Part shown: positions 1,428-36,857 of the stretch, in pieces
Position numbering within the stretch: the first letter of the stretch is position 1
Layout of the letters: each line of letters starts with the position of its first letter
Source: Verrucomicrobia bacterium GWF2_51_19
GTDB taxonomy: Bacteria; Verrucomicrobiota; Verrucomicrobiia; Opitutales; UBA12508
DNA length: 64,000 nt
NCBI GenBank assembly: GCA_001831095.1
Contig: MIDP01000005.1
Coordinates: 30,514-94,513 of the forward strand
Direction: 5' to 3'
The notes under the pieces: model-generated
Seen by the model: the letters and a program-made list of their open reading frames with translations, nothing else
Told to the model about the DNA's origin: nothing
Database searches by the model: none
Program-made: the position numbers and the translations under genes

Positions 1428-1555
1428 AAAGGCCTTTGAAAAATGATGTCAAAGCTTGGCTTTGCGCGAGCACGATCTGCCGTAGCGTACGATGGTACGT
1501 AAGGCAGTCGCGCGGAGCGAAAAACGAGCTTTCACGGCATTTTGCATAGGCCTTT
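1428..1555 (+). repeat. Type-A palindromic element, full length (128 bp)
   Basis: AAAGGCCTTTGAAAAATGATGTCAAAGCTTGGCTTTGCGCGAGCACGATCTGCCGTAGCGTACGATGGTACGTAAGGCAGTCGCGCGGAGCGAAAAACGAGCTTTCACGGCATTTTGCATAGGCCTTT. The two halves are imperfect reverse complements. The right end overlaps the rpsM stop codon. Confidence 0.9.
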
Positions 1556-1928
1556 ATTTTTTCTTCATAACACCGACGGTCTTCCTCGCGCCCTTGCGGG
1601 TACGAGCGTTGGTGCTCGTGCGTTGACCTCTAACGGGCAATCCGCGTTGATGCCGAATGCCGCGATAGCATCTAATCGCCTGCATGCGTTTGATATTACC
1701 CATCACATCGCGGCGAAGGTCACCCTCGATCTTGAATCCATTACGGGTAATCGATTCAACAATCTTGTTGAGTTCTTCTTCGCTCAACTCGTGAGCGCGC
1801 TTGTTTGGGTCTATATCGGCATCTTCCAGGAGCTCTTTGGCTCGCGTCGGACCAATACCATAGATATAGCGTAGAGAATACTCGATTTTCTTCTCTTTGG
1901 GGATATCGACTCCTAATATACGTGGCAT
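1554..1928 (-). CDS. rpsM: 30S ribosomal protein S13
   Basis: [34 protein letters not shown]... is a canonical S13 start. 124 aa. Confidence 0.95.
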
Positions 1929-1959
1929 ATCTTTAATGAATAAGTTGTGAATTAAAAAA

Positions 1960-2727
1960 CTATATTTTATACAATGTCAACACTTCCGGATCTTTTTCTG
2001 TAACGAGCACGGTGTGTTCGAAGTGAGCGCAGGGCATGCGGTCTTTTGTGACCACCGTCCAGCCGTCTTGTAAAATCTCTACAGCGTAATGGCCGAGCAT
2101 GACCATGGGCTCGAGGGCGAGCGTCATACCGGGCTTCATTTCAGGACCTTTTCCGGAAGGGCCGTAATTGGGAATTTGTGGCTCCTCGTGCATATCGCGA
2201 CCGACGCCGTGGCCAACGAAATCGCGGACAACGTTCATTCCGTTGCTCTCTACGTAGCGTTGGACGGCATTGGAAATGTCGCCGATGCGGTTACCGGGGC
2301 GCACTTGATCGATGGCAACCTCGAGCGCCTTTTGGGTGACATCGACGAGTTTTTTTACGTCATTGGAGACCTCACCAACACAGACCGTCGCGGCATTGTC
2401 TCCGACAAAACCCTTGTAGCGAAGGGCGACGTCGATGCTGACAATGTCACCTGTCTGAATCGAGCGTTGCATCGATGCGATACCGTGGACGAGCTCTTCA
2501 TTGAGCGAAATGCAGGAGTAACAGGGAAAAACGTTCTTGCCGGCGCGGTAATTGTAACTCGTACTCTCGGCCCCGTATTCCGCCATCAAACGTTTACCGA
2601 TCTGGTCGAGGTCGTAAGTCGTCATGCCAACTTTAATCGACGCGAGCATGCGATGCAAGACAGCCGCCGCAATCGTGCAGGCCTCCCGCATACATTCCAA
2701 ATCTTTACCTTTCTTTATCGGTATCAT
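1960..2727 (-). CDS. map: Methionine aminopeptidase type I
   Basis: 255 aa with peptidase M24 metal-ligand context ([25 protein letters not shown]). Sits between secY and rpsM. Confidence 0.9.
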
Positions 2728-2731
2728 TTAA

Positions 2732-2804
2732 AAGACCATTGCAAAATGTCCCACGGCGTTCTCGTCGTTCGGGCCTGGCTATAGGCCCATTTTGCAGCGG
2801 TCTT
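2732..2804 (+). repeat. Type-B element, short deletion form (73 bp)
   Basis: AAGACCATTGCAAAATG...GGCGTTCTCGTCGTTCGGGC|CTGGCTATAGGCCCATTTTGCAGCGGTCTT. The junction falls at the internal direct repeat TCGGGC. Lies 4 nt from the map ATG. Confidence 0.85.
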
Positions 2805-2827
2805 TCCTTTCGTATTTTTTAATTCGC

Positions 2828-2956
2828 AAAGACCTGTGAAAAATGGCGTCAAAGCTTGGCTTTGCGCGAGCACGAGCTGCCGTAGCGTACATACGGTATG
2901 TAAGGCAGTCGCGCGGAGCGAAAAACGAGCTTTCACGGCATTTTGCATAGGTCTTT
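2828..2956 (+). repeat. Type-A element, full length (129 bp)
   Basis: Near-identical to the 1428 copy. The right end GGTCTTTTAA abuts the secY stop codon. Confidence 0.9.
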
Positions 2957-4461: not shown

Positions 4462-4465
4462 GGTG

Positions 4466-4918
4466 TTATGACTCTATTTTTTCAATAACCGACACTTGAC
4501 CGCCTGCAGCCTCGATCTTGGCCTTGGCAGAAGAGGAAAACTTGTCTGCCGTGATCGTGAGGGCCCGACTCAGTTCGCCATCTCCGAGGACCTTGATGCG
4601 GACCGCCGTTGGACGGACGAGACCTGCATGCACGAGGACATCGCGATCGATTGCCTGAATGCCTTCGATGGTGCTGAGGTCACCGACATTGACGATATCG
4701 TAGCGTTTCGTAAAGGAAAAATTGCTGAAACCGCGTTTTGGTAGTTTGCGGTAGTATGGGATACCGGAACAGACGGGAGATGGCGTGTAACCCGCTCTCG
4801 CCTTACCACCCTTGTGACCGCGACCGGAAGTTTTACCGTGTCCTGTGCCTTGCCCTCTTCCCAAACACTTCGGTTCTGGACGTGCACCCTTTGATTTAGG
4901 TATTGTATGTAATTTCAT
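4466..4918 (-). CDS. rplO: 50S ribosomal protein L15
   Basis: ORF 4466..4933 trimmed to MKLHTIPKSKGARPEPK. The upstream ATG lies inside the type-B repeat terminus. GRGxGxGxGKT motif present. Confidence 0.9.
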   Translation of the reverse strand: MKLHTIPKSKGARPEPKCLGRGQGTGHGKTSGRGHKGGKARAGYTPSPVCSGIPYYRKLPKRGFSNFSFTKRYDIVNVGDLSTIEGIQAIDRDVLVHAGLVRPTAVRIKVLGDGELSRALTITADKFSSSAKAKIEAAGGQVSVIEKIES

Positions 4919-4925
4919 GATGCCT

Positions 4926-5039
4926 AAGACCATTGCAAAATGTCCGCTGCGTTCTCGTCGTTCGGGCTAGGTCACGTACGTCAGTACGCTCCCGTTGCCC
5001 TCGCTCCTCGAGCCTTGCCGGCCATTTTTCAACGGTCTT
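4926..5039 (+). repeat. Type-B element, full length (114 bp)
   Basis: AAGACCATTGCAAAATGTCCGCTGCGTTCTCGTCGTTCGGGCTAGGTCACGTACGTCAGTACGCTCCCGTTGCCCTCGCTCCTCGAGCCTTGCCGGCCATTTTTCAACGGTCTT. Confidence 0.9.
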
Positions 5040-5100
5040 ACCTTTCTTTTAAAATCTTAATTATTAGTACTTCAAGATCTATAATCCATGTGCCCTAGCA

Positions 5101-5135
5101 TAAAGCAACGAGCTTTCACGTATCATATGTCTTTA
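5101..5135 (+). repeat. Type-A micro remnant (35 bp)
   Basis: TAAAGCAACGAGCTTTCACGTATCATATGTCTTTA retains the A right arm (AACGAGCTTTCACG) between degenerate termini. Lies 6 nt from the rpsE stop. Confidence 0.55.
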
Positions 5136-5141
5136 CATTTC

Positions 5142-5693: not shown

Positions 5694-5700
5694 ATTGATG

Positions 5701-5822
5701 AAAAACTGTGCAAAATGGCCTCTAGCTGTGTTCTCGTCGTTCGGGCTAGGTCACGTACGTCAGTACGCTCCCGTTGCCCTCACTCCTCGGGCCTTGCGAT
5801 AGGACCATTTTGCCCAGTTCTT
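5701..5822 (+). repeat. Type-B element, full length with degenerate termini
   Basis: AAAAACTGTGCAAAATGGCCTCTAGCTGTGTTCTCGTCGTTCGGGCTAGGTCACGTACGTCAGTACGCTCCCGTTGCCCTCACTCCTCGGGCCTTGCGATAGGACCATTTTGCCCAGTTCTT. Lies 7 nt from the rpsE ATG. Confidence 0.85.
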
Positions 5823-5865
5823 AGTTGTTGATTGTTACAAATTGAATAAAATAATAAAAATCCAT

Positions 5866-5925
5866 CAAGCAAGCTTGAGAAATCGTGTCAAAACTTGGCT
5901 TTGCGCGATTTCACAGGCTTGCTTA
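5866..5925 (+). repeat. Type-A short, degenerate (variant termini AAGCAAGC)
   Basis: CAAGCAAGCTTGAGAAATCGTGTCAAAACTTGGCTTTGCGCGATTTCACAGGCTTGCTTAA. Keeps the A left arm fused to the right arm. The right end overlaps the rplR stop. Confidence 0.6.
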
Positions 5926-6378: not shown

Positions 6379-6507
6379 AAAGAACGATGATAAATGCTGT
6401 CAAAGCTTGGCTTTGCGCGAGCACGATTCGGCCGTAGCGTACGATGGTACGTAAGGCAGTCGCGCGGAGCGAAAAACGAGCTTTCACTGCATTTTGCATA
6501 GGTCTTT
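6379..6507 (+). repeat. Type-A element, full length (129 bp)
   Basis: TAAAGAACGATGATAAATGCTGTCAAAGCTTGGCTTTGCGCGAGCACGATTCGGCCGTAGCGTACGATGGTACG...GCATTTTGCATAGGTCTTTA. The terminal TTA is the rplF stop codon. Confidence 0.9.
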
Positions 6508-7042
6508 AAGCGGTTTTCTTGCCTTCCTTACGCCTTACGTATTGCCCGACGATGCGGACGCCCTTGCCTTTGTAAGGTTCGACGGGGTAGAAATGTTTGA
6601 TGTCTGCAGCGACCTGGCCCACGAGGTGTTTGTCGACGCCCTCGATTTTGAGCTTGGTGTTTTCAACGATCGTGACCTTGATGCCCTCTGGAATCTCGTA
6701 TTTGATCGGGTGGGAATAGCCCAACGCGAGGTCGATCATCTTGCCGTTGAGAATGGCTTTGAAACCAACACCAACGATTTCGAGATCTTTGGAATAAAGG
6801 ACCTGCACGCCCTTGACCATGTTGGCCAAGATAGCGCGCGCGGTTCCTCGCATCGCATGAGCCAAGCGGCTGTTGTTCGCCGAATCGACGAGCAATTCGC
6901 CCTCTTTCAAAGTAATCGTGACGGCCTTGTCAAAGGTCTTTGATACTTTGCCCTTGGGTCCTTCGATCAGGACGGTCTGGCCGCTGATGTTAGCCTTGAC
7001 TGCTGACGGAATTTGTACGGGAAGCTTTCCTATTCTACTCAT
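6506..7042 (-). CDS. rplF: 50S ribosomal protein L6
   Basis: 178 aa. MSRIGKLPVQIPSAVKANISGQTV... is a canonical L6 start. Confidence 0.95.
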   Translation of the reverse strand: MSRIGKLPVQIPSAVKANISGQTVLIEGPKGKVSKTFDKAVTITLKEGELLVDSANNSRLAHAMRGTARAILANMVKGVQVLYSKDLEIVGVGFKAILNGKMIDLALGYSHPIKYEIPEGIKVTIVENTKLKIEGVDKHLVGQVAADIKHFYPVEPYKGKGVRIVGQYVRRKEGKKTA

Positions 7043-7054: not shown

Positions 7055-7441
7055 TTACCAAACTTTGCACAATAGTTCGCCCCCGACCTTTTTCAGCCGA
7101 GCCTCTTTATCTGTCAGAATGCCGCGGGAGGTACTCAAGATACCAATGCCCAAGCTATCCAACGTGTAAGGGACCTCTTTGTACGAGTAGTAACGGCGGC
7201 AACCGGGCTTGCTGTGACGCTGTATGCCCTGAATTGCCGGCTGTCCGCTCAAATACTTGAGCGTTACCAGAATCGCCTTGTGTCCCTGTCGTGTTGTTTC
7301 CGAAAAATCTGCAATATAGCCTTCTTTTTTCAAAATAGAAACAATACTTTCATTCATACGTGACCCACCCAAAATGCAGTCCGCCTTTTTCACAGAGCTT
7401 GCATTTCGAATTATAGTTAGGGTATCGCCTATGCTGTCCAT
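7055..7441 (-). CDS. rpsH: 30S ribosomal protein S8
   Basis: 128 aa. IGDTLTIIRNA...ILKKEGYI...TSRGILTDKEARLKKVGGELLCKVW. Confidence 0.95.
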   Translation of the reverse strand: MDSIGDTLTIIRNASSVKKADCILGGSRMNESIVSILKKEGYIADFSETTRQGHKAILVTLKYLSGQPAIQGIQRHSKPGCRRYYSYKEVPYTLDSLGIGILSTSRGILTDKEARLKKVGGELLCKVW

Positions 7442-7450
7442 AATTTTCCT

Positions 7451-7527
7451 AAGACTGTTGCAAAAGGGCCTCTAGTTGCAGTTCCCCTACTCGGGTCTTG
7501 CTGTAAGAGCCATTTTTCAACGGTCTT
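7451..7527 (+). repeat. Type-B element, short form (77 bp)
   Basis: AAGACTGTTGCAAAAGGGCCTCTAG...CTACTCGGGTCTTGCTGTAAGAGCCATTTTTCAACGGTCTT. Lies 9 nt from the rpsH ATG. Confidence 0.8.
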
Positions 7528-7552
7528 TTCATTTCGTAAGTTGTTAATTCAC

Positions 7553-7744
7553 AAAGACCTGTGAAAAATGCTGTCAAAATTTGGCTTTGCGCGAGCACGA
7601 TCTGCCGTAGCGGCAGGGCTGGCCCTGCACCCTTGGGATACTGCGTATCCACTTTTAAAAGTGGATGCGTGAGCATCCTAGGGGGTACGGGGGCCGCTGC
7701 CCCCGGCGAAAAACGAGCTTTAACGGCATTTTGCATAGGTCTTT
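7553..7744 (+). repeat. Type-A-long element (192 bp): A element with a 94-bp multi-hairpin module replacing the right half of its central stem
   Basis: The termini and outer arms are identical to type A. The interior differs (see 7613..7706). Confidence 0.9.
7613..7706 (+). repeat. 94-bp nested multi-hairpin module inside A-long
   Basis: GCAGGGCTGGCCCTGCACCCTTGGGATACTGCGTATCCACTTTTAAAAGTGGATGCGTGAGCATCCTAGGGGGTACGGGGGCCGCTGCCCCCGG. It contains consecutive short stems: CAGGGC/GCCCTG, GGATAC/GTATCC, CCACTTTT/AAAAGTGG, GGATGC/GCATCC and GGGGGC/GCCCCC. Confidence 0.85.
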
Positions 7745-7751
7745 CCTTTTT

Positions 7752-8057
7752 TTACCAAGAAGACTTCGTTATACCCGGCAATAGACCGGCTGAAGCCATT
7801 TCTCGGAATTGAATACGTGATACACCGAATTTACGCATACTGGCACGGGCACGACCTGTTATTGCACAACGGTTTCGTACACGTACGCGAGAAGAATTGC
7901 GCGGTAAAAGCGTCAGTGCGCGTTGCGCGATGAAAAAGTCCTCATCTGAAACATTGGGGTTTGAGAGCGTCTTCTTCAACTCGGCGCGACGGGCCGCATA
8001 CTTCTCTACCAAACGCATGCGCTTCTTATTTCTTTCGATACTTGATTTCTTAGCCAT
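7752..8057 (-). CDS. rpsN: 30S ribosomal protein S14 (long, non-zinc form)
   Basis: 101 aa. [28 protein letters not shown]...[25 protein letters not shown]. Confidence 0.95.
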
Positions 8058-8063
8058 GATATT

Positions 8064-8179
8064 TAGACTGTGGCAAAACGGCCAACGGCGTTCTCCTTAC
8101 TCGGGCTAGGTCACATACCTGAATACGCTTCCCGTCACCCTCGCTCGCCTGGCATTTCCGTTCCTTTCGCTACGGTCTT
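8064..8179 (+). repeat. Type-B element, full length, degenerate
   Basis: TAGACTGTGGCAAAACGGCCAACGGCGTTCTCCTTACTCGGGCTAGGTCACATACCTGAATACGCTTCCCGTCACCCTCGCTCGCCTGGC...CTACGGTCTT. The central stem is eroded. Lies 6 nt from the rpsN ATG. Confidence 0.75.
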
Positions 8180-8203
8180 TCCTTTCAAAAATTGTTAATT
8201 CAC

Positions 8204-8332
8204 AAAGACCTGTGAAAAATGGCGTCAAAGCTTGGCTTTGCGCGAGCACGATCTGCCGTAGCGTACATGCGGTACGTAAGGCAGTCGCGCGGAGCGAAAA
8301 ACGAACTTTCACGGCATTTTGCATAGGTCTTT
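8204..8332 (+). repeat. Type-A element, full length (129 bp)
   Basis: AAAGACCTGTGAAAAATGGCGTCAAAGCTTGGCTTTGCGCGAGCACGATCTGCCGTAGCGTACATGCGGTACGTAAGGCAGTCGCGCGGAGCGAAAAACGAACTTTCACGGCATTTTGCATAGGTCTTT. Abuts the rplE stop. Confidence 0.9.
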
Positions 8333-8875
8333 TTAGTTTTTGCGGAAGGGCATTCCCATGAGTTCCAACAGCGCAAAGCCATCTTCGTTGGTCTTTGCCG
8401 TTGTGACAATCGTGATGTCCATTCCAATGTTTTTGCGGTTTCCATCGACCTGAATTTCTGGAAAAATGCTGTGATCCGAAATGCCGATGCTGTAATTGCC
8501 GTGGCCATCCAGCTTGGAAGACACGCCGCGAAAGTCGCGAATGGCTGGCAATGCGACCGCGAGGAGCCTCAACAGGAAGTTGTACATAGCATTGCCGCGC
8601 AACGTCACTTTGACGCCGTTTGGCATACCTTGTCTCAACTTAAAGTTGGAAATGCTCTTGCTGGCCTTGGTAATAATCGGCTTTTGACCCGTAATGGCCG
8701 TAAGTTCTTTTTCGATTTCGGCAATGCGATTTTTCTCATCGGACGCCGCGATACCGGTGTTGAGGACGATCTTTTCAATCGCCGGGACTTCGTGGATATT
8801 GCTGTAGCCACGCGTCTTTCTCAATTCTGGCACGACGACCTCTAAATAATGTTTTTTGAGCTCAGGCAATTTCAT
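8333..8875 (-). CDS. rplE: 50S ribosomal protein L5
   Basis: 180 aa. L5 N- and C-domain motifs (VPAIEKIVLNTG..., GNYSIGISDHSIFPEI). Confidence 0.95.
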   Translation of the reverse strand: MKLPELKKHYLEVVVPELRKTRGYSNIHEVPAIEKIVLNTGIAASDEKNRIAEIEKELTAITGQKPIITKASKSISNFKLRQGMPNGVKVTLRGNAMYNFLLRLLAVALPAIRDFRGVSSKLDGHGNYSIGISDHSIFPEIQVDGNRKNIGMDITIVTTAKTNEDGFALLELMGMPFRKN

Positions 8876-9129
8876 GACTTCGCCTTTCTAGCCTTGCGAG
8901 CTTCGAATGTCTCGGCGCGCATGACGTTGGAATAATGGATAGAGCCCTCGCGCGTTTCCATGCCTCCTTCGGGATTCTTTTCGGACTTGCGAACACATTT
9001 TTTGACCATGGCCACACCTTCGACAACCACGCGATTCTTCTTGGAGAGCAACTCCAACACCTTTCCGCGCTTGCCCTTGTGTGAACCAGCGATCACGACA
9101 ACTTCGTCACCTCTTTTTAAAGATTTCAT
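8872..9129 (-). CDS. rplX: 50S ribosomal protein L24
   Basis: 85 aa. [21 protein letters not shown] is the KOW motif. 4-nt overlap with rplE. Confidence 0.9.
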
Positions 9130-9491
9130 ATGACCTCCGGAGCGAGTGAAACGATTTTCATAAAATTCTTGTCGCGCAATTCACGGGCGACAGGACCGAA
9201 TATACGAGTACCTTTGGGTTCTTGACCCGTGCCCAAAAGAACACAGGCATTGGTGTCAAACCGCAGATAACTGCCATCTTTACGACGAATGGGGTACTTG
9301 GTCCGCACAATGACGGCACGGACGACCGTTCCCTTCTTGACAGACGCATCGGGCGTGCTCTCTTGAACGGAACCGACGATGATGTCACCGACGAAGGCCG
9401 TACGCTTGCGTTGGCCGATACGACGAATCATCAGGAGGCTCTTAGCTCCAGTGTTGTCGGCGATTAATAATACGCTTTCTTGCTGTAACAT
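9126..9491 (-). CDS. rplN: 50S ribosomal protein L14
   Basis: 121 aa. [17 protein letters not shown]...[23 protein letters not shown]. Confidence 0.95.
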
Positions 9492-9497
9492 GTTCTC

Positions 9498-9620
9498 AAA
9501 CCGTTTTAAAATGTCCTCTAGCGGCGTTCTCGTCGTTCGGGCTAGGTCAACGTACCGTCAGTACGCTCCTGTCGCCCTCGCTCCTCGGGCCTGGCTATAG
9601 AACCATTTTTCAACGGTCTT
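9498..9620 (+). repeat. Type-B element, full length (123 bp)
   Basis: AAACCGTTTTAAAATGTCCTCTAGCGGCGTTCTCGTCGTTCGGGCTAGGTCAACGTACCGTCAGTACGCTCCTGTCGCCCTCGCTCCTCGGGCCTGGCTATAGAACCATTTTTCAACGGTCTT. Lies 6 nt from the rplN ATG. Confidence 0.9.
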
Positions 9621-9653
9621 ACCTTTCTTGTTAAATATGAATCATTGATACAT

Positions 9654-9700
9654 AAAGACCTTGGCAAAACGAGCTTTCAGGTCATTTTGCATAGGTCGTT
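9654..9700 (+). repeat. Type-A micro form (47 bp)
   Basis: AAAGACCTTGGCAAAACGAGCTTTCAGGTCATTTTGCATAGGTCGTT. Termini plus right arm only. Lies 2 nt from the rpsQ stop. Confidence 0.7.
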
Positions 9701-9702
9701 CT

Positions 9703-9963
9703 TTATATTTCCTGTGCGGCTTCCACCACTTTCGTCACACGCCAGCGCTTCATTTTACTGAGCGGACGCATTTCCATGATTTCTACCTTGTCGCCGACTT
9801 TGCACTCGTTGTTTTCATCGTGCACGTGGACAACGGTCTTGCGCTTGATCTCCTTCTGGTACAAGGGATGCGGGATCTTGTAGTCGTAGACCACCTTGAT
9901 CGTCTTATCCCCGGAACGGCTCGAAACGAGACCCACGAGTGTTTTTCGTTGCTTTCTTTCCAT
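9703..9963 (-). CDS. rpsQ: 30S ribosomal protein S17
   Basis: 86 aa. GLVSSRSGDKTIKVVYDYKIPHPLYQKEIKRKTVVHVHDENN. Confidence 0.95.
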   Translation of the reverse strand: MERKQRKTLVGLVSSRSGDKTIKVVYDYKIPHPLYQKEIKRKTVVHVHDENNECKVGDKVEIMEMRPLSKMKRWRVTKVVEAAQEI

Positions 9964-12725: not shown

Positions 12726-12738
12726 AACTGTGTGCAAT

Positions 12739-12861
12739 CCTGAATCAAAATAGCGCCAAAATGTGTTTTTCGCTCCGCCGCCTGGCTCACGTACTTCTAT
12801 GTACGCTACGCCAGGTCGTGCTCGCGCAAAGCCCCATTTTTGCATCTATTTTGTCTTCAGG
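12739..12861 (-). repeat. Type-C element (123 bp)
   Basis: CCTGAATCAAAATAGCGCCAAAATGTGTTTTTCGCTCCGCCGCCTGGCTCACGTACTTCTATGTACGCTACGCCAGGTCGTGCTCGCGCAAAGCCCCATTTTTGCATCTATTTTGTCTTCAGG. The core is A-like, but the stem is CTGGC/GCCAG instead of CTGCC/GGCAG. Confidence 0.85.
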
Positions 12862-12896
12862 ATAGCGTTCTATTTTTCACTTTTCGGCTGTTTTTA

Positions 12897-12973: not shown

Positions 12974-13097
12974 AAAGAACTATGGAAAATGCGCCTATAG
13001 CCAGGCCCGAGGAGTAAGGGCGACAGGAGCGTACGTTGGTACGTGACTTAGCCCGAACGACGAGAACGCCGCTAGAGGACATTTTACATAGTTCTTT
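12974..13097 (-). repeat. Type-B element, full length, inverted orientation
   Basis: AAAGAACTATGGAAAATGCGCCTATAGCCAGGCCCGAGGAGTAAGGGCGACAGGAGCGTACGTTGGTACGTGACTTAGCCCGAACGACGAGAACGCCGCTAGAGGACATTTTACATAGTTCTTT. The terminal TTA is the rplW stop. Confidence 0.9.
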
Positions 13098-13386
13098 ATA
13101 CGATTTCGATTTTGTCTCCGGACTTAAGCGTAACAATCGCGAACTTGCGGTTCACGCGTCTATCAAGCTTTCCACGGGCTGTACGACTGCGTTTGCGTTT
13201 TCCTGCTCTATTGAGAATGTTAACCCCCTCAACGGTGACATTGAATTTCTTTGCCACCGCATGGCTCACTTCCAAACGGTTCGCTGAAGGGTAGACTTCA
13301 AACACGTATTGATTGGAATTGGCAGACAAGAGGCCCGCTTTTTCCGTCACACGCGTTGCTTTTAAAACTTTTTCCAGTGCTAACAT
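13096..13386 (-). CDS. rplW: 50S ribosomal protein L23
   Basis: ORF 13096..13476 trimmed to M31 (MLALEKVLKATRVTEKA...), which has AGGAG 7 nt upstream and does not overlap rplD. 96 aa. Confidence 0.9.
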   Translation of the reverse strand: MLALEKVLKATRVTEKAGLLSANSNQYVFEVYPSANRLEVSHAVAKKFNVTVEGVNILNRAGKRKRSRTARGKLDRRVNRKFAIVTLKSGDKIEIV

Positions 13387-14021: not shown

Positions 14022-14037
14022 AGTCTCGGTCTTTCCT

Positions 14038-14688: not shown

Positions 14689-14712
14689 AATCTAAGCGGC
14701 AGATGCCGAACG

Positions 14713-14744
14713 TTGCGCAAAGGCCTATAGCGGCGTTTTCGCGG
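14713..14744 (+). repeat. Possible type-B left-arm remnant
   Basis: TTGCGCAAAGGCCTATAGCGGCGTTTTCGCGG resembles TTGCAAAATGGCCTCTAGCGGCGTTCTCGTCG. No right half is present. Confidence 0.4.
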
Positions 14745-14844: not shown

Positions 14845-14919
14845 AAAGACCTATCAAAAATGTCGTCAAAGCTTGGCTTTGCGCGAAACGAGCTTTCACG
14901 GTATTTTTCATAGGTCTTT
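14845..14919 (+). repeat. Type-A short form (75 bp, central hairpin deleted)
   Basis: AAAGACCTATCAAAAATGTCGTCAAAGCTTGGCTTTGCGCGA|AACGAGCTTTCACGGTATTTTTCATAGGTCTTTT. Abuts the rpsJ stop. Confidence 0.85.
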
Positions 14920-15233
14920 TATGTATTAATGGTAATATCGATCCCAGCCGGAAGGTTCAACTTCTTGAGCTCGTCGACGGTTTGTGATGTAGGCTCCTGG
15001 ATAATGAGAAACCGGGAGTGTGTACGGAGCTCGAACTGTTCCATGGACTTCTTATTGACGTGCGGGGAACGGTTGACAGTGAATTTCTCGATATCTACAG
15101 GCAAAGGGATGGGACCGGAGACGCGGGCGCCAGAGCGTTTAGCGGTCTCGACGATCTCTTTAGCGGACTGATCGACGACGCGGTAGTCATAGCCCTTGAG
15201 TTTGATACGAATCTTTGGAGTGGTAGTAGCCAT
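14919..15233 (-). CDS. rpsJ: 30S ribosomal protein S10
   Basis: 104 aa. [39 protein letters not shown]. Confidence 0.95.
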
Positions 15234-18424: not shown

Positions 18425-18552
18425 AAAGACCTATGATAAATGTCGTAAAAGTTTGGCTTTGCGCGAGCACGATCTGCCGTAGCGTACGATGGTACGTGAG
18501 GCAGTCGCGCGGAGCGAAAAACAAGCTTTCACGGCATTTTGCATAGGTCTTT
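18425..18552 (+). repeat. Type-A element, full length (128 bp)
   Basis: TAAAGACCTATGATAAATGTCGTAAAAGTTTGGCTTTGCGCGAGCACGATCTGCCGTAGCGTACGATGGTACGTGAGGCAGTCGCGCGGAGCGAAAAACAAGCTTTCACGGCATTTTGCATAGGTCTTTA. Confidence 0.9.
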
Positions 18553-22733: not shown

Positions 22734-22803
22734 AGAGACCATTGATAAATGCCCGCCAACTTCTCCTCTTATTTGTCTTGGCTGCTCATCCATCAACAGT
22801 CTC
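22734..22803 (+). repeat. Type-B short form, degenerate (70 bp)
   Basis: The termini AGAGACCATTGATAAATG and CATCCATCAACAGTCTC match as inverted repeats at 13 of 17 positions. Lies 13 nt from the rpoC ATG. Confidence 0.55.
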
Positions 22804-22836: not shown

Positions 22837-22964
22837 AAAGACCAATGAAAAATGCCGTCAAAGCTTGGCTTTGCGCGAGCACGATCTGCCGTAGCGTACG
22901 ATGGTACGTAAGGCAGTCGCGCGGAGCGAAAAACGAGCTTTCACTGCATTTTGCATAGGTCTTT
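22837..22964 (+). repeat. Type-A element, full length (128 bp)
   Basis: TAAAGACCAATGAAAAATGCCGTCAAAGCTTGGCTTTGCGCGAGCACGATCTGCCGTAGCGTACGATGGTACGTAAGGCAGTCGCGCGGAGCGAAAAACGAGCTTTCACTGCATTTTGCATAGGTCTTTA. The terminal TTA is the rpoB stop codon. Confidence 0.9.
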
Positions 22965-26827: not shown

Positions 26828-26949
26828 AAGATCAATGCAAAATGGTCTATAGCGGCGTTCTCGTCGCTCTGGCTAAGTCACGTACCAACGTACGCTCCTG
26901 TCGCCCTCGCTCCTGCGGCCTTGCTCTAGATCCATTTTGCATCGATCTT
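26828..26949 (+). repeat. Type-B element, full length (122 bp)
   Basis: AAGATCAATGCAAAATGGTCTATAGCGGCGTTCTCGTCGCTCTGGCTAAGTCACGTACCAACGTACGCTCCTGTCGCCCTCGCTCCTGCGGCCTTGCTCTAGATCCATTTTGCATCGATCTT. Confidence 0.9.
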
Positions 26950-27026: not shown

Positions 27027-27148
27027 AAGACCGCAGTAAAATGACTCTATAGCAAAGCCCGAGAAGTGAGGGCGACAGGAGCCTACTGACGTAGGTGACT
27101 TAGCCCGAACGACGAGAACGCCGCTATTGATCATTTTGCAAAGGTCTT
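27027..27148 (-). repeat. Type-B element, full length, inverted orientation
   Basis: AAGACCGCAGTAAAATGACTCTATAGCAAAGCCCGAGAAGTGAGGGCGACAGGAGCCTACTGACGTAGGTGACTTAGCCCGAACGACGAGAACGCCGCTATTGATCATTTTGCAAAGGTCTT. The central stem is CCTAC/GTAGG. Confidence 0.9.
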
Positions 27149-27540: not shown

Positions 27541-27657
27541 TTTTGTTATTTCCTTGAATAGTTAGCGTCCTTGCGGACATTTAAGGGAATACCCCTAACG
27601 AATTCTTCAGAAAACCTCGGAAACGGGGCCTCACCCCACTCCAAGATCATCTAAATT

Positions 27658-28179: not shown

Positions 28180-28244
28180 AAGACCATTGTTCCCAACGTT
28201 TCATATCGCTCTTCGGGCCTTGTCTTCAAGTTTTCAATAGTCTT
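28180..28244 (+). repeat. Type-B short form (65 bp), degenerate
   Basis: AAGACCATTGTTCCCAACGTTTCATATCGCTCTTCGGGCCTTGTCTTCAAGTTTTCAATAGTCTT. Confidence 0.65.
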
Positions 28245-28273: not shown

Positions 28274-28465
28274 TTAGACCTGTGAAAAATGGCGTCAAAG
28301 CTTGGCTTTGCGCGAGCATGACCTGCCGCAGCGGCAGGGCTGGCCCTGCACCCTTGGATACTTCGTATCCACTTTTAAAAGTGGATGCATGAGCCCTCCT
28401 AGTGGGTACGGTGGCCGTTGCCCCCGGCGCGAAACGAGCTTTCACGGCATTTTGCATAGGTCTAA
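28274..28465 (+). repeat. Type-A-long element (192 bp), second copy
   Basis: TTAGACCTGTGAAAAATGGCGTCAAAGCTTGGCTTTGCGCGAGCATGACCTGCCGCAGCG[module]CGCGAAACGAGCTTTCACGGCATTTTGCATAGGTCTAA. The CTA in the right terminus is the rplA TAG stop. Confidence 0.9.
28334..28427 (+). repeat. 94-bp multi-hairpin module, second copy (diverged)
   Basis: GCAGGGCTGGCCCTGCACCCTTGGATACTTCGTATCCACTTTTAAAAGTGGATGCATGAGCCCTCCTAGTGGGTACGGTGGCCGTTGCCCCCGG. It has the same length and stem order as 7613..7706, and the GGATAC/GTATCC loop changes from TGC to TTC. Confidence 0.85.
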
Positions 28466-30426: not shown

Positions 30427-30430
30427 GAGC

Positions 30431-30675
30431 AAACCTCTTCAAAAGGACCTCTAGCAGCGTTCTCCCTGCAGGCAAATTTGGCAATAAGTTCGTTATCCTT
30501 CGTGATTCGCCTATGTCACGCATTTCAATGCGCTCCAGTCGGCTCACACTCGGAAGCCTGCTTCTTGCCCCATTTGCCTGCAGGTTCGTCGTTCGGGCTA
30601 GGTCACGTACGTCAGAGTACGCTCCCGTCGCCCTCGCTCCTCGGGACCTTGCTATAGGCCATTTTGAAGAGGTTT
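30431..30675 (+). repeat. Type-B element interrupted by a nested 120-bp element
   Basis: AAACCTCTTCAAAAGGACCTCTAGCAGCGTTCTCC[insert]TTCGTCGTTCGGGCTAGGTCACGTACGTCAGAGTACGCTCCCGTCGCCCTCGCTCCTCGGGACCTTGCTATAGGCCATTTTGAAGAGGTTT. Confidence 0.85.
30465..30584 (+). mobile_element. Nested type-D MITE-like insert (120 bp), single copy in window
   Basis: Perfect 13-bp inverted termini CCTGCAGGCAAAT...ATTTGCCTGCAGG, extendable to ~24 bp imperfect. It splits the left arm of a type-B element. Confidence 0.75.
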
Positions 30676-30794
30676 GCGACTTTGATCATCAACTAGCGGT
30701 AAATTTTTAATTAACACTAACATGAATCCTTGATTATTACACCTATCGGCTTTTTATATAAGTCTTTATTGTGGATTAAGTTAGATTATGTAAT

Positions 30795-32183: not shown

Positions 32184-32207
32184 GTTATTTTCGTGTTGAA
32201 ATCTAAA

Positions 32208-32517: not shown

Positions 32518-34938
32518 ATGCAATCAACACTACTATCGTCGGAAAGCAAATATTTTTGGGGTCTATTTTACCTCTGTTTAGGCGGGCTGATGGGGGCGGC
32601 GTTGTGGAACTTTGATCTATTACAGACCTTGTTTGCGACGACAGCCAAGCATCCAAGCAACATTACTGGGCTCTTGGGAAGCTACGCGGCGTTTTGGAGC
32701 TTTCGTTTCTTTGGATGTGCTGCGTGGATGTTGCCGACCTACATGATCTTTGCATCCTATGCCCTACTCTTCCGAAAGAGCCACACCCTGCGCTTTTGGC
32801 GATACGCGGCCATGTTTGTGACCGTCATCAGCTTGGCGGCGTTGGGCAACCTTTGGCAAAGCTTGTTTTTGAGCGAAAAAGCCAAGGTGTTCCTTTACAG
32901 CAGCGCTTATTCTCAGGGCCTGGGCGGCATCTTGGGCGACATTGCCCTCTATCGCGTCATTGCAAACATTGGCCTGCTCGGCACCTGCGTCCTCTACACT
33001 GTATCTTTTTGCGTATCCCTCGTGGTCTCACTCTCACCGGAAGCCACACCGCAAGCGGCCTTTGCGCGTTTTCTGAAAATGGCAAAAGTCTTTTTAACGC
33101 GAGCCACACGCGTCGCTGGAGCCTTTGGCCGACTTTCGCAGAGAGCGCTATCGGTTTTTTGGCAACAGACACAGGATAAACTCGCCCAAATTCGCGCCAC
33201 GAAACAGTCGGCGCTTCCACCTATAGAAGCTAAACAGCCGATAGAAGCTAAACAGCCGGTGTCTCTCGCGGAAAAGCCCGACAGCGACTATGCGCCACCG
33301 GATTTTCAACGAGCCGCCTCGGAGCTTTCCAAAGCCGTCTCAGAGCACTCAACGCCACTCAAAATGCTTGAAAAGCCGGTTGAGCATGTGCGCATCGAGC
33401 CTCAATCGCTCAAAATTGTCGCCGAAGAGGTCCTGGAAAAGGGCCTGGTGAATCGCCCGCAACGAGGCAATTACCAATTTCCGCCGCTCGACATCCTTAA
33501 GACGGCCCCAGAGTCCTCCAAGCCCAACACCGAAGAGCACGCGCAGACGGCACAGGCGCTCATCGACAAGCTTGAAGAGTTTGGCGTCAGCGTCTTTTTA
33601 AATGAAATCCACACGGGTCCGGTCATCACGCGCTACGAAGTGACGCCGGCAAAGGGTGTCCGCGTTGAAAAGATTGTCAACCTCGATAAAAACATCGCCC
33701 TCGGCCTCAAAGCGCTCTCGGTTCGCATATTGGCGCCGGTTCCAGGCAAGGGCTGCGTCGGCATCGAGTTGCCAAACAAGCGCCCACAGGCCGTCTGCTT
33801 GCGCGACATTTTGGAATCGAAGGCGTGGGCCGAGTCTCAGGCAGAAATTCCCATTGTTTTAGGAAAAGAAGTGACTGGAAAACCCATCGTCGCCGACCTC
33901 ACGCGCATGCCACACCTCCTCATCGCCGGCTCCACGGGCTCCGGCAAGACGGTCTGCATCAACACGATCATCGCCTCTCTGCTCTACCACTCGAGCCCAG
34001 AAGACCTCCGCTTTATCATGGTCGACCCGAAAATCGTCGAAATGAAGGTTTTCAACGACCTCCCACACATGCTCGTCCCCGTCGTCACGGATCCCAAAAA
34101 AGTACCAGGCGCGCTCAAATGGCTGATCTCGGAGATGGAACACCGCTATCAGATCTTTGCCCAAGTCGGCGCACGCAACATCGCCAGTTTCAATGCAAAG
34201 CTCAGCGAAAAGAGCAGCACGGCTGAAAAGATCGACCTCTCCCCCGAGGAACGCACGGCCCTCCGCGAGTTCGACACCGAAAAGGTCTCCGTTCCGCGCG
34301 AAAAGCTGCCTTACATCGTCTGCGTCATCGACGAGCTGGCTGACCTCATGATGGTTGCCCCGGCGGACGTCGAGTCGTCGATCACCCGACTCGCACAGCT
34401 GGCGCGAGCGGCCGGCATTCACCTCATCATCGCGACGCAACGGCCCTCCGTCAACGTCATTACTGGTGTAATCAAGGCAAACCTGCCAAGCCGTATCGCC
34501 TTTAAAGTCGCATCAAAAGTCGACAGCCGAACCATTCTCGACGGCATGGGCGCTGAAAACCTCATCGGCCGCGGTGACATGCTCTTCGTTCCACCAGGAG
34601 CCTCAGACCTCATTCGCGCGCAGGGAGCCTTTGTCTCCGATGAAGAAATCACAGCTATCGTCGAGGCCCTCAAGGTCAACGGCGCTCCACAATTTGTCGC
34701 AGAAATCCAAGATCACATCGAGTCTGAGTCTGGTGAAGACGGCCCCACTCTCGATGGTGAATGGGACGACAACCTCATTCCACAGGCACTCGCAGTCCTC
34801 AGATCCACCGACAAGCCCTCGACTTCTCTGCTACAGCGCCGCCTCAAGATCGGTTACAACCGCGCCGCCCGTATCATGGAAACCCTCCAGGCTGAGGGGC
34901 TGGTTAGCAATATCTCTGAACCTGCCAACCTACAGTAA
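32518..34938 (+). CDS. ftsK: DNA translocase FtsK/SpoIIIE
   Basis: 806 aa with N-terminal TM helices, Walker A LLIAGSTGSGKTV, Walker B YIVCVIDELADL, and C-terminal gamma winged helix (TSLLQRRLKIGYNRAARIMETLQAEGLV). Confidence 0.93.
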   Translation: MQSTLLSSESKYFWGLFYLCLGGLMGAALWNFDLLQTLFATTAKHPSNITGLLGSYAAFWSFRFFGCAAWMLPTYMIFASYALLFRKSHTLRFWRYAAMFVTVISLAALGNLWQSLFLSEKAKVFLYSSAYSQGLGGILGDIALYRVIANIGLLGTCVLYTVSFCVSLVVSLSPEATPQAAFARFLKMAKVFLTRATRVAGAFGRLSQRALSVFWQQTQDKLAQIRATKQSALPPIEAKQPIEAKQPVSLAEKPDSDYAPPDFQRAASELSKAVSEHSTPLKMLEKPVEHVRIEPQSLKIVAEEVLEKGLVNRPQRGNYQFPPLDILKTAPESSKPNTEEHAQTAQALIDKLEEFGVSVFLNEIHTGPVITRYEVTPAKGVRVEKIVNLDKNIALGLKALSVRILAPVPGKGCVGIELPNKRPQAVCLRDILESKAWAESQAEIPIVLGKEVTGKPIVADLTRMPHLLIAGSTGSGKTVCINTIIASLLYHSSPEDLRFIMVDPKIVEMKVFNDLPHMLVPVVTDPKKVPGALKWLISEMEHRYQIFAQVGARNIASFNAKLSEKSSTAEKIDLSPEERTALREFDTEKVSVPREKLPYIVCVIDELADLMMVAPADVESSITRLAQLARAAGIHLIIATQRPSVNVITGVIKANLPSRIAFKVASKVDSRTILDGMGAENLIGRGDMLFVPPGASDLIRAQGAFVSDEEITAIVEALKVNGAPQFVAEIQDHIESESGEDGPTLDGEWDDNLIPQALAVLRSTDKPSTSLLQRRLKIGYNRAARIMETLQAEGLVSNISEPANLQ
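33223..33258 (+). repeat. 18-bp tandem duplication inside the ftsK linker
   Basis: ATAGAAGCTAAACAGCCG x2, encoding PIEAKQ PIEAKQ. Confidence 0.8.
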
Positions 34939-35062
34939 AGACGGATCAAAATAGCGCAAAAATGCGTTTCGCGCTCCGCCGACTGGCTTACGTACCATCG
35001 TACGCTACGCCAGATCGTACTCGCGCAAAGCCACATTTTTGCATCTATTTTGATCCGTCTTT
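34937..35062 (-). repeat. Type-C element (126 bp)
   Basis: AAAGACGGATCAAAATAGCGCAAAAATGCGTTTCGCGCTCCGCCGACTGGCTTACGTACCATCGTACGCTACGCCAGATCGTACTCGCGCAAAGCCACATTTTTGCATCTATTTTGATCCGTCTTT. Its left terminus overlaps the ftsK TAA. Confidence 0.9.
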
Positions 35063-35085
35063 ACACTTTACGATTTGTCTAATGC

Positions 35086-35160
35086 AAGACCGATGCAAAA
35101 TGGCTCTAGAGCAAGGCCCGAGGAGCGAGGGCGACAGGAGCGTACGTTGGTACGTGACTT
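35086..35160 (-). repeat. Type-B element, truncated (one terminus plus half of core)
   Basis: AAGACCGATGCAAAATGGCTCTAGAGCAAGGCCCGAGGAGCGAGGGCGACAGGAGCGTACGTTGGTACGTGACTT, after which the similarity ends. Confidence 0.8.
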
Positions 35161-35195
35161 GAAGCGGCCTTAGCCGTTGTAAGTCGTTAATAAAC

Positions 35196-35250
35196 AAAGA
35201 CCGATTAAAAATGGCAAAGGCAGGTGGCCTACTCTTTTGCCTCTGTCTTT
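35196..35250 (+). repeat. Mini element with family termini (55 bp)
   Basis: AAAGACCGATTAAAAATGGCAAAGGCAGGTGGCCTACTCTTTTGCCTCTGTCTTT. Confidence 0.5.
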
Positions 35251-35252
35251 TT

Positions 35253-35381
35253 AAGGCCGATGTAAAAATGGATGCAAAAATGTGGCTTTGCGCGAGTACG
35301 ATCTGGCGTAGCGTACATAGAGGTACGTGAGCCAGTCGGCGGAGCGCGAAACGCATTTTGGCGCCATTTTACATCGGCCTT
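35253..35381 (+). repeat. Type-C element with variant outer termini (129 bp)
   Basis: AAGGCCGATGTAAAAATGGATGCAAAAATGTGGCTTTGCGCGAGTACGATCTGGCGTAGCGTACATAGAGGTACGTGAGCCAGTCGGCGGAGCGCGAAACGCATTTTGGCGCCATTTTACATCGGCCTT. Abuts the glgA stop. Confidence 0.85.
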
Positions 35382-36857
35382 TTACAGCGGTCTTTTAGCT
35401 GATATAGCCCAGTTGTAAATGTCGTTGTAATGCAGGGCTGATGTTTTCCAAGAAAAGTCTTTTTCCATGCACGTCTTGCGCATTTTCAAAAAGTGCTGTG
35501 GGCGGTCATAATAGGTAGAACAGGCCCAGCCTATTGAATAATAAAGACCATGACAACTGGCCTCTTCGAAGCGAAACCCGGTTCCAGAGCCGTCTGATTC
35601 GTTGTATTGATCAATGGTGTTGACTAGTCCGCCAGTCGAACGAGCCACAGGAACCGTTCCGTAGCGCATCGAATACATCTGATTGAGACCACAGGGCTCA
35701 AAGCGACTGGGCATCACAAAGAAATCAGAACCCGCCTCCATGAGGTGCGACAGGGCCTTATCGTAACCGATATAGACACCCACTTTGCCCGGATAGCGAT
35801 TGCAGAGGTCGGAGAGGTACCACTCGATGTGGTGTTCGCCAGAACCGAGCACGAGAACCTGAATCTTCATTTCAGACAACAGCCCCGGAATGATGTCGGC
35901 CAACAAGTCGATACCCTTTTGCCAATAGAGACGTGCAATGGCACAGAAAATGGGGATATGGGGGTCGACTTCGAGCCCAAAACGCCGCTGTAGGGCCTCT
36001 TTGCAGGCCGCTTTTCCAGAAAAGTCTCGAGTTGAGTAGTTGGCGGGGAGGTAGGGATCCGTCTCCGGATTCCAGCCCTGGGTGTCGATGCCGTTGAGCA
36101 CGCCAATGAGGTCGGCGCCACGAAAGTTTAGGACGGGATCTAGACCGCAACCGAACTCGGCTGTTCGAATTTCCTGAGCGTATTGTGGGCTGACGGTCGT
36201 GATTTTGTTGGCGTGATAGAGGCCTCCCTTGAGAAAATTCACGCATCCAAGGGACTCGAGGCTGTCGCTTCGGAACTCCGTTTGATGCAGTCCAGCGAAG
36301 TCCAAAATGCCCTTTTCGAAGATGCCCTGATGCTGTAAGTTGTGAATAGTGACAACGCTAGCGGTATTCTTTAAGGCCGTTTCGCGCTCGGTCGTGTTTA
36401 AGAAAACAGGAACTAGGCCGGTTGTCCAGTCGTGACAATGCATGATGTCCGGGTACCACTTAATGAAATGGCAGAGGTCGAGGGCCGCCCGACTCAAAAA
36501 GGCAAAGCGCTCATTGTTGTCGCCATGACTTCCCCATGGACCCGTATAGATCTCGTGACGCTGAAAGTACTTGTTGTATTCTAGGCAATAGATTTTGACA
36601 TTCTCGCTGCCAGGATAGCCGGTTTCCCAAACACGGCAAAAGGCTTCACCAGCCAAATTGACAATCATAGGGCCCTCTTTGGCTACCCAATCCTCATCCG
36701 GCGACATAAATCCGTAAAGGGGCATCACAACCCTCACATCTAACCCGTTTTGCCCCAGCGCCTTAGTGAGCGAACCAACCGCATCGCCCAATCCCCCAAC
36801 AGACGCAAAAGGAGCCAATTCCGGCGTCACCATCAAGACCTTTAATGTGCTTGTCAT
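35382..36857 (-). CDS. glgA: Glycogen synthase (ADP-glucose type)
   Basis: ORF 35382..36929 trimmed to M25 (MTSTLKVLMVTPELAPFASVGGLGDAVGSL...), the typical GlgA N-terminus. 491 aa. The last codons KRPL-stop are encoded by a repeat-terminus-like AAAGACCGCTGTAA. Confidence 0.88.
   Translation of the reverse strand: MTSTLKVLMVTPELAPFASVGGLGDAVGSLTKALGQNGLDVRVVMPLYGFMSPDEDWVAKEGPMIVNLAGEAFCRVWETGYPGSENVKIYCLEYNKYFQRHEIYTGPWGSHGDNNERFAFLSRAALDLCHFIKWYPDIMHCHDWTTGLVPVFLNTTERETALKNTASVVTIHNLQHQGIFEKGILDFAGLHQTEFRSDSLESLGCVNFLKGGLYHANKITTVSPQYAQEIRTAEFGCGLDPVLNFRGADLIGVLNGIDTQGWNPETDPYLPANYSTRDFSGKAACKEALQRRFGLEVDPHIPIFCAIARLYWQKGIDLLADIIPGLLSEMKIQVLVLGSGEHHIEWYLSDLCNRYPGKVGVYIGYDKALSHLMEAGSDFFVMPSRFEPCGLNQMYSMRYGTVPVARSTGGLVNTIDQYNESDGSGTGFRFEEASCHGLYYSIGWACSTYYDRPQHFLKMRKTCMEKDFSWKTSALHYNDIYNWAISAKRPL

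Follow-up and report, generated by a model that had tools for sequence, protein, structure and literature searches.

The intercistronic spacers of a ribosomal-protein/rpoBC superoperon in Verrucomicrobia bacterium GWF2_51_19, an uncultured groundwater Verrucomicrobium represented by a metagenome-assembled genome (MAG), are occupied by long palindromic repeats whose ends fall on the stop codon of one gene and within a few nucleotides (nt) of the start codon of the next. The repeats were analyzed in a 64-kb stretch of this genome, hereafter the window, in which they are found at 15 of the 36 junctions of the superoperon and place structured inserts of 200-320 nt where spacers were 0-25 nt. The reading favored here, to which a probability of roughly 0.6 is assigned, is that a lineage-specific, noncoding, hairpin-forming two-module element resembling a miniature inverted-repeat transposable element (MITE) invaded these short spacers, and that selection on the mRNA filtered the positions and polarities of its copies.

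The superoperon lies on the minus strand of the window, as determined by open reading frame (ORF) listing and translation, with the gene order rpsD, rpsK, rpsM, map, secY, rplO ... rpsJ, fusA, rpsG, rpsL, continuing as rpoC, rpoB, rplL, rplJ, rplA, rplK, nusG, secE, tRNA, and tuf. Beyond it are located ftsK (+), glgA (-), glmS (+), and glgC (+), all confirmed by Pfam, and further genes. The SecY encoded in the window is 100% identical to a protein of the GWF2_51_19 MAG. Repeat finding and profile searches identified two related families, A (~127 nt) and B (~122 nt), both long imperfect palindromes with similar tips, AAGACCnnTGnAAAATG ... CATTTTnCAnnGGTCTT. The motif AAGACCnnTGnAAAATG forms terminal inverted repeats (TIRs) at both element ends, and the two termini of one copy carry the same terminal 7-mer, AAAGACC. 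With up to two mismatches allowed, the tip pattern was found 330 times in the pooled sequence described below vs 15 times in a reversed-sequence control. About 31 copies, with unrelated flanks, are present in the window.

The ends of each module model were named L and R. In the full composite of ~275 nt, an A module that is antisense in the mRNA (~127 nt) is joined by an AU-rich linker of ~25 nt to a B module in sense orientation (~122 nt), and the usual junction layout is stop codon, A-antisense, ~25-nt linker, B-sense, 0-11 nt, and ATG. Adjacent A/B pairs have the order A-antisense, linker, B-sense in 17 of 18 cases, always with the R ends outside and the L ends inside. The outer R tips are alike (AAGACC-WW-TGCAAAATG), while the inner L ends (...TGAAAAATG) face the linker; the flank past the L ends, that is, the composite linker (TGTGAATTAACAAcTTACGAAAGGA), is weakly conserved across loci, and the flank past the R ends is not conserved. 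Single modules, internally deleted copies of 54-77 nt, copies with nested repeats, and A-variants (at ftsK, glgA, and rplB) also occur. The simplest reading is a two-module element with the R tips as its true termini, from which the single-module, deleted, and nested forms derive. Its small size (<300-400 bp), many dispersed copies, and TIRs are characteristics of MITEs.

A sequence-only reading of the window had proposed that element termini overlap or abut the stop codons of 12 named genes, and this was borne out for 11 of them. In the mRNA sense, with a hyphen marking the end of the stop codon, the junctions read TAA-AGGCC at rpsM, where the R tip of an A module antisense in the mRNA (1429..1554, +) overlaps the stop codon (1554-1556) by 1 nt; TAA-AAGACC at secY, where an A module (2829..2955, +) abuts the stop codon (2956-2958); TAA-AGACC at rplF (A module 6380..6506, +, overlapping the stop codon at 6506-6508); and TAA-AAAGACC at rplE (A module 8205..8331, +, abutting 8333-8335). 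At rpsQ, the degenerate tip of an internally deleted A module (9655..9699, +) adjoins the stop codon (9703-9705), giving TAA-AGAACGACC, and at rplW the R tip of a B copy, antisense in the mRNA (12975..13096, +), overlaps the stop codon (13096-13098; TAA-AGAAC). An internally deleted A module of 73 nt (14846..14918, +) abuts the rpsJ stop codon (14919-14921; TAA-AAGACC), and at rpoB (A module 22838..22963, +; TAA-AGACC) the stop codon (22963-22965) is itself base-paired in the closing helix. The rplA junction reads TAG-ACC: the tip of a long A module with a nested repeat (28275..28464, +) has here become TTAGACC and overlaps the stop codon TAG (28462-28464), and the partner arm has changed such that pairing is kept. 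Outside the superoperon, the ftsK stop codon (34936-34938, + strand; TAA-AGACGG) is paired in the 20-bp perfect closing stem of an A-variant module (34938..35061, -), and another A-variant (35253..35381, +) abuts the glgA stop codon (35382-35384; TAA-AAGGCC).

The twelfth gene, glmS, did not conform to the description: its TAAAGAC (40064-40070) is internal, and a copy with a B core and a variant closing stem (AAATCGCGCGATG...; 40037..40177, -) begins 1 nt after the stop codon (40034-40036). A further abutting case, missed earlier, was found at rplR, where a short A-derived hairpin with the variant closing stem GCAAGC (5862..5922, +) starts on the stop codon (5923-5925; TAA-GCAAGC), which is included in the stem. 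Elements lie at a distance from the stop codon at rpsN (8 nt; long A module 7554..7743, +, with a third repeat nested in its loop; stop codon 7752-7754), rplL (11 nt; B module 27027..27148, +, antisense in the mRNA; stop codon 27160-27162), and rpoC (33 nt; A module 18426..18551, +; stop codon 18584-18586). If elements were placed uniformly in the residual spacer, the chance that at least 9 of 14 junctions abut would be ~1e-8. The earlier view that element termini have become part of the translational punctuation of these genes is supported, as stop codons overlap the tips and are often base-paired in the closing helix (rpoB, ftsK, rplR, rplA, and rplW).

At the opposite end of these spacers, the previously listed distances between B-type ends and start codons proved accurate to within 1 nt. 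The R tip is located 4 nt upstream of the map ATG (2727; short B module of 73 nt, 2732..2804, -), 3-4 nt upstream of the secE ATG (30426; B module with an internal insertion, 30430..30676, -, whose tip, GAAGAGGTTTG, is changed compensatorily in both arms), 5-6 nt upstream of the rplN ATG (9491; 9497..9620, -, with an unpaired GAAAGGU 5' of the stem), and 6 nt upstream of the rpsN ATG (8057; 8064..8179, -). The distance is 7 nt at both rplO (ATG 4918; 4926..5039, -) and rpsE (ATG 5693; 5701..5822, -), and 9 nt at both rpsH (ATG 7441; short B module 7451..7527, -) and glgC (ATG 42810; 42680..42800, +). It reaches 14 nt at rpoC (ATG 22720), where only a solo B-type R tip is present (22735..22753, +), and 15 nt at rplJ (ATG 28164; short degenerate B module 28180..28244, -). 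In the secY-map composite, the linker GCGAATTAAAAAATACGAAAGGA (2805..2828, -) carries a Shine-Dalgarno (SD)-like GAAAGGA directly 5' of the B stem.

These positions depend on the gene models, which hold: N- and C-termini agree with those of orthologues from two relatives at most genes, residue for residue for rpsM, rplF, rplW, map, rpsN, rpsH, and rplO, so the stop and start codons have not been misplaced. The one notable difference is RplE (8333-8875), which ends in ...MGMPFRKN, ~10 residues short of its homologues in the two relatives; since the rplE stop codon sits at an element tip, the protein was probably truncated by the insertion.

To extend the analysis beyond the window, a metagenome scan with a 19-nt A core was used, which retrieved 49 further loci from the same organism in two further assemblies; the other 20 scan matches were GC-rich chance matches without an element. 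The pooled set (window plus 49 loci) comprises ~510 kb with 72 A and 53 B copies that are unique and full-length, and the frequencies derived from it are approximate, because the loci were chosen by the A core and genes were called by a crude ORF rule. For A, 31 of the 72 copies have the R tip at a stop codon (offset -3 to +1) and none the L tip (p = 9e-10), while the corresponding counts for B are 8 of 53 and 0 of 53 (A-R vs B-R at stops, p = 9e-4). At start codons, 23 of the 53 B copies have their R tip 0-11 nt ahead of the in-frame ATG of a long ORF, an arrangement that is rare for other ends (B-R vs A-R at starts, p = 1e-7). Among 87 termini facing an ORF end, 27 are positioned at offset 0 or -1, compared to a genome-wide background of ~0.6 per position. 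Thus, the enrichment of element ends at stop and start codons anticipated from the window alone is present across ~510 kb.

The 31:0 asymmetry between R and L ends at stop codons follows from the R tips being the true outer termini of the composite. This two-module structure does not, however, account for the polarity of the element relative to genes. In tandem gaps, A is antisense in 31 cases and sense in 7, and within the window element orientation flips with gene strand, as seen at ftsK, glgC, and a Kdo-transferase gene. The last of these is preceded by a composite on the plus strand (52378..52594, +), consisting of a short A-antisense module (52378-52450), the linker, and a B module (52476-52594), whose polarity follows the plus-strand gene. 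A replication-strand bias was considered as the cause of orientation and rejected, because polarity tracks gene direction on the plus as well as the minus strand of the same 64 kb.

In the two nearest available relatives (loci L078 and L079), the corresponding operons have element-free spacers of 1-66 nt, and at most junctions of 1-25 nt, although these relatives are distant, as the closest other SecY proteins are only 72-74% identical. An RplE scan of a genome collection likewise found no elements at Puniceicoccales MAG loci, the nearest of which are at most 60% identical. Some residual flanks of the insertions match the spacers of the relatives: AATATC-ATG before rpsN is common to the window and one relative, and in L079 the map ATG directly follows the secY TAA. 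The elements therefore entered very short spacers in the GWF2_51_19 lineage.

The relatives also bear on the suggestion that the elements leave a minimal or absent SD sequence, which was only partly upheld. At map, rpsN, rpsH, and rpsE, the orthologous spacers of the relatives are also without an SD, so its absence there is probably ancestral; by contrast, an SD is retained between element and ATG at rpoC (GAGGAG), rpsH, and rplJ.

The copies are predicted to form stable hairpins. Folding energies of individual copies lie between about -45 and -74 kcal/mol (z-scores between -4 and -13), and the family means for full-length copies range from -51 to -71 kcal/mol. In the B alignment, 93.9% of cells are paired, double changes are found in 19 of 28 pairs, and 137 compensatory cells were counted vs 35.5 in shuffles, none of 500 shuffles scoring as high; for A, matching variants at the tip were seen in both arms by eye. 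The outermost 10-12 nt of the B stem are hypervariable and least conserved, yet self-complementary, whereas the core and the internal loops are conserved, which suggests that either selection or arm-to-arm correction keeps the hairpin closed. Some copies combine the same conserved core with wholly different closing stems (window 40037-40177, L092 180-306, L095 10495-10618, and L136 2836-2959), and their complementarity can reach up to 12 nt past the usual tip, suggesting modular stems or arm-to-arm correction.

Hairpin stability as the cause of orientation was rejected: the transcribed strand has the less stable fold for A (-59.7 vs -70.8 kcal/mol) and the more stable one for B, and stability hence provides no simple orientation rule. 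The exterior-loop path from stop to start in minimum-free-energy folds of eight junctions, examined for a looping-out of the insert, was uninformative, as shuffled gaps were equally compact.

Taken together, these observations favor the following scenario, in which the mechanism of mobility, the co-transcription with operons, and selection as the cause of position and polarity are inferred. Elements would have spread through intergenic DNA genome-wide, including the 0-25-nt spacers of ribosomal-protein operons, where the shortness of the spacer would leave any surviving insertion with one tip at the stop codon and its second tip a few nucleotides short of the following ATG. With its A-rich sequence, (A)AAGACC, the tip overlaps the last bases of TAA, TGA, or TAG, and the stop codon would thereby be kept or regenerated. 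Selection on the polycistronic mRNA would then filter for A-antisense after stop codons and B-sense before start codons, and selection or arm-to-arm correction would keep the copies as closed hairpins, such that the insert is packed away between cistrons. Of the two explanations that the sequence-only reading had left standing, the survival of only those insertions that preserve stop and start signals fits best: polarity follows gene direction on both strands, and since the ancestral spacers are 1-25 nt at most junctions, tolerated insertions must bracket them.

Several observations weigh against this scenario. Stop codons are also abutted at the convergent gene ends of ftsK and glgA, where short-spacer geometry and translational coupling cannot be the explanation, and the additional loci were picked for containing the A core, with genes called by the crude rule. 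The hypervariable outer stem is the opposite of the usual transposase-bound TIRs, no transposase with matching tips was found in the ~510 kb, and no target-site duplication of fixed length was found (direct repeats of 2 nt, 19 vs 9.8 expected; of 3 nt, 3 vs 2.4). Finally, the conserved core and internal loops could reflect a selected function rather than a passive parasite.

An adapted role of the element in translation, as a split ribosome-binding site or a relay, is possible. In one form, the composite would be a mobile punctuation cassette whose tip supplies or completes the stop codon, with ribosomes handed on either by restarting at the conserved tip AUG and reading through A into the stop-rich linker or by 30S subunits that bind the linker SD and bridge B, such that a gene 125-290 nt away stays coupled; this is judged unlikely. 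Doubtful, too, is the form in which the composite has been shaped by selection, or is built, to bring its own punctuation and the next gene needs the element for its translation, the tip completing the stop codon and either the folded B module bringing the linker SD (GAAAGGA) to within 3-9 nt of the ATG or a short ORF across A acting as the relay. Consistent with such roles, the 12-nt stretch immediately 5' of the B L end contains SD-like 4-mers in 15 of 52 copies (3-6 for other end types), including GAAAGGA directly 5' of the B stem. In 9 of the 26 B copies adjacent to an ATG, an SD lies directly 5' of the stem and the linear -20..-4 interval contains none, and folds leave GAAAGGU and the ATG region unpaired. 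The conservation of the linker across loci and the placement of B 0-11 nt from an ATG point the same way. For the relay, 43 of 71 copies carry an AUG at +8 of A-antisense, from which an ORF (median length 48 codons) runs on to end in the stop-rich linker TGTGAATTAAC, and A-antisense is poor in stop codons, with at least one frame open across the element in 65 of 71 copies vs 30 of 71 for sense (window plus L082-L148).

These SD-like and AUG/ORF features are suggestive, although not universal, and are confounded by common descent: all copies stem from few masters, and shared features are therefore not independent. The SD-like flank is found in just ~30-40% of B copies, SD usage in the genome looks low (25% vs 14% in shuffles, with crude start calls), and the orthologous junctions of the relatives already lack an SD. 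The putative relay ORF is not conserved as a frame, because 1-nt loop indels shift it; a conserved peptide was rejected for the same reason, and because the AUG of B-sense meets a stop codon after three codons. To our knowledge, there is no case of a 30S subunit bridging a hairpin as long as 122 nt. The geometry of B copies with GAAAGGA directly 5' of the stem and an ATG 3-9 nt 3' of it resembles a split ribosome-binding site with a precedent in phage T4, in genes 38 and 25 of which a hairpin between SD and AUG cuts an over-long spacing to a functional one (PMC3014915). The T4 hairpins, however, are short (spacing 22-27 nt) and occur at single loci rather than dispersed; the shared geometry is seen here in 9 of 26 ATG-adjacent B copies.

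The other explanation proposed earlier, that insertion targets the TAA/TTA of stop codons, would make the flush position a product of mechanism: a transposase, either IS630/Tc1-like with TA duplication or IS5/Harbinger-like with TWA, would insert into the TA or TAA of the stop codon. Many copies indeed read TA-AAGACC...GGTCTT-TA, and RUP with its partner insertion sequence (IS) IS630-Spn1 is a precedent for a TA-targeting bacterial MITE (PMC2229807). Abutted stop codons are enriched in TAA (29 of 39 vs 42% genome usage, p = 6e-5), which fits either partial regeneration of the stop codon by the A-rich tip or a mild preference. Abutment at convergent gene ends and the excess of 2-nt direct repeats also agree with targeting. 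However, both tips carry the same terminal 7-mer, yet only R abuts stop codons (31 to 0), and a sequence target would be blind to the coding strand unless TAA and TTA were read strand-specifically. No flank is conserved beyond position -1, which alone is enriched (A, 58%), and position -2 is T in just 35% of ends. TA within 4 nt of the tip is found at 44-55% of nonabutting ends across the four end types, compared to ~47% by a rough hand estimate of chance for flanks of ~60% A+T; only at stop codons does TA next to the tips exceed this estimate. Junctions such as TGA-AGACC and TAG-ACC also exist. A TA/TAA target duplication as a general rule was rejected on these grounds and for lack of a fixed-length direct repeat, and TA duplicated at both ends, as in IS630/Tc1-mariner-type (RUP-like) elements, was not found to be the pattern. 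Stop-codon targeting as the cause of the flush position is accordingly considered unlikely. The search for an autonomous transposon between distant inverted tips or R-out module pairs in the ~510 kb yielded only lpxB, a SIS-domain protein, tpiA, plsX, rho, tatD, and an AAA/DUF4143 ATPase, the genes enclosed by distant tip pairs being housekeeping genes.

A role in RNA processing or stability is improbable. Under this explanation, the hairpins would be RNase III sites dividing the polycistron into stable monocistronic mRNAs, 3' stabilizers, or leaky terminators after stop codons (A followed by UUUGUGAAUU), or would stall ribosomes within 15 nt of the stop codon in the manner of REP sequences. 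The long and nearly perfect stems, the conserved core and internal loops with free closing stems, and the pairing of stop codons in stems are all compatible with it, as is the ~2 to 1 excess of G·U over A·C in the transcribed sense of B (a hand tally of the pair table). There are also precedents in Correia elements with RNase III, ERIC with RNase E, and attenuation by BIMEs (PMC2229807, PMC3049150). Against it, A folds less stably on its transcribed strand, terminator-like sites show no enrichment (22 vs 25.8 expected), and the relatives do without the elements. No Rfam family matched the elements in a scan of the window, where two tRNAs were the sole matches at gathering score and 7400-9750 was without a match at E<=1. 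A scan for outward promoters in the elements found no site that recurs consistently, the matches to sigma-70-like sequences being isolated ones (6403-6374; 9634-9605). That flush junctions are an artifact of MAG misassembly or wrong gene models is hardly credible: although the sequence is a MAG and the TAA-like strings of the tips would end any ORF reading in with the right frame, the elements are also found in two further independent assemblies as diverged, nonidentical copies, protein termini match homologues residue for residue at the seven genes named above, and L tips of the same sequence never end ORFs.

The remaining copies in the window include an A-variant ("C") module (12735..12863, -) upstream of the true rplB start (MAIKQYNP...) and a B module (26828..26949, -) in the rplL-rpoB gap. 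Both long A copies harbor a third repeat (…GGTGGATGCGTGAGCATCCTAGGGGG…GGGGGCCGCTGCCCCC) within their loops (7613-7695 and 28334-28405); this repeat is also found on its own at 40331-40377, just before the stop codon (40383) of an exonuclease III-like gene. The rplC-rplD spacer (14022-14037), TAA-AGGAAAGACCGAGACT-ATG, is similar to the linker plus B tip (GAAAGGAAAGACCG) and could be what an element left behind on excision or deletion, or could hint at where the tip came from.

Three neighboring regions are of separate interest. The end of the rpsJ-rplC spacer upstream of rplC (14689-14720; ...TCTGCCGCTTAGA..ATG) is conserved with the relative L078 despite a GC content of 36% vs 51%, and may represent either a conserved leader or a regulatory hairpin that has nothing to do with the repeats. 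The repeat-free rplL-rplJ gap (27541-27657; 117 nt) contains GC-rich pairing segments (…GGGGCCTCACCCC…) and may represent a conserved L10 leader. The interval 44000-48000, with a GC content of 0.44-0.45 vs ~0.52, encodes an 802-residue ankyrin-repeat ORF (44647-47055), and may have been horizontally acquired or be related to host interaction.

Several known repeat systems share individual features with the elements described here. Correia/NEMIS elements of Neisseria are 100-160-bp hairpin MITEs with TIRs, present in hundreds of copies by genes and co-transcribed with them, for which RNase III action has been proposed (PMC2229807). The likeness lies in the hairpin-forming, MITE-like structure with TIRs next to genes; the sequences are unrelated, the 26-bp Correia TIRs are well conserved whereas the tips here are the most variable part, and the present element differs further in having two modules in a fixed mutual arrangement, polarity relative to genes, and a location inside ribosomal-protein operons. 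Correia elements also have a TA duplication and an IHF site, and their 26-bp TIR is TATAGTGGATTAA...; in a comparison by eye, the tips and core here were wholly different from this TIR, while the linker GTGAATTAACAA was partly similar, a resemblance treated as chance.

BOX elements of Streptococcus pneumoniae are modular intergenic repeats that encode the stop codon in 36 genes and are co-transcribed with operons, and pneumococcal repeats in general show enrichment between convergent genes, with selection thought to act against them where the neighboring genes are co-transcribed (PMC3049150). The present element resembles BOX in being modular and intergenic and in overlapping stop codons, but BOX is built of boxA-B-C modules rather than two long hairpins, whereas here elements fill 15 of 36 superoperon junctions, with a second module linked to start codons. 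In enterobacteria, ERIC/IRU and YPAL are imperfect palindromes of ~127 bp, transcribed in operons with orientation-dependent effects on mRNA (PMC3049150). They match in size and palindromic form, but have no sequence similarity to the present element and no reported rule by which one end lies on a stop codon and the other module at a start. RUP is likewise a small noncoding element with TIRs, for which the partner (IS630-Spn1) and the TA target are known (PMC2229807). TA often flanks copies here too, but its adjacency is near the rough chance estimate, and a partner was not found in the ~510 kb.

REP, BIME, and REPIN sequences are also extragenic palindromes just downstream of genes whose stems are maintained at the level of structure, not of sequence. 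Terminating ribosomes can stall at REPs that lie within ~15 nt of a stop codon. REPs are, however, ~35 nt long with a conserved GTAG and a RAYT partner, whereas the modules here are ~125 nt with a conserved core; neither the GTAG nor a RAYT partner was seen, the latter without a genome-wide search. In-frame hairpin repeats within genes are known as Rickettsia palindromic elements. A B copy (47691-47813) similarly lies in frame and free of stop codons in a Mur-ligase ORF (47062-48354), between the M and C domains, adding ~41 codons, and a similar in-frame B copy is found at L136 2841-2952, but such intragenic copies are exceptional here (2 of 125 full-length). None of the repeats compared (BOX, Correia, ERIC, RUP, and REP) joins two polar modules tied to stop and start codons with the occupation of ribosomal operons.

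The usual view is that bacteria keep small interspersed repeats out of the space between co-transcribed genes, but here such repeats occupy 15 of the 36 junctions of a superoperon, apparently without killing the cell. The end asymmetry, polarity, and compensatory stems amount to a natural experiment on how much structured RNA is tolerated between a stop codon and the next start, and bear on the way structured inserts are accommodated by translational coupling or SD-independent initiation. Should the elements prove to aid initiation or coupling, operon design could draw on them as a portable intercistronic part, and a true punctuation cassette would be a dispersed, transposable translational coupler that would explain the saturation of the most essential operons; if they give no such help, they provide a clean case of selection shaping where selfish DNA persists. 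The elements of GWF2_51_19 thus illustrate how selfish DNA can live within essential operons and become part of operon punctuation.

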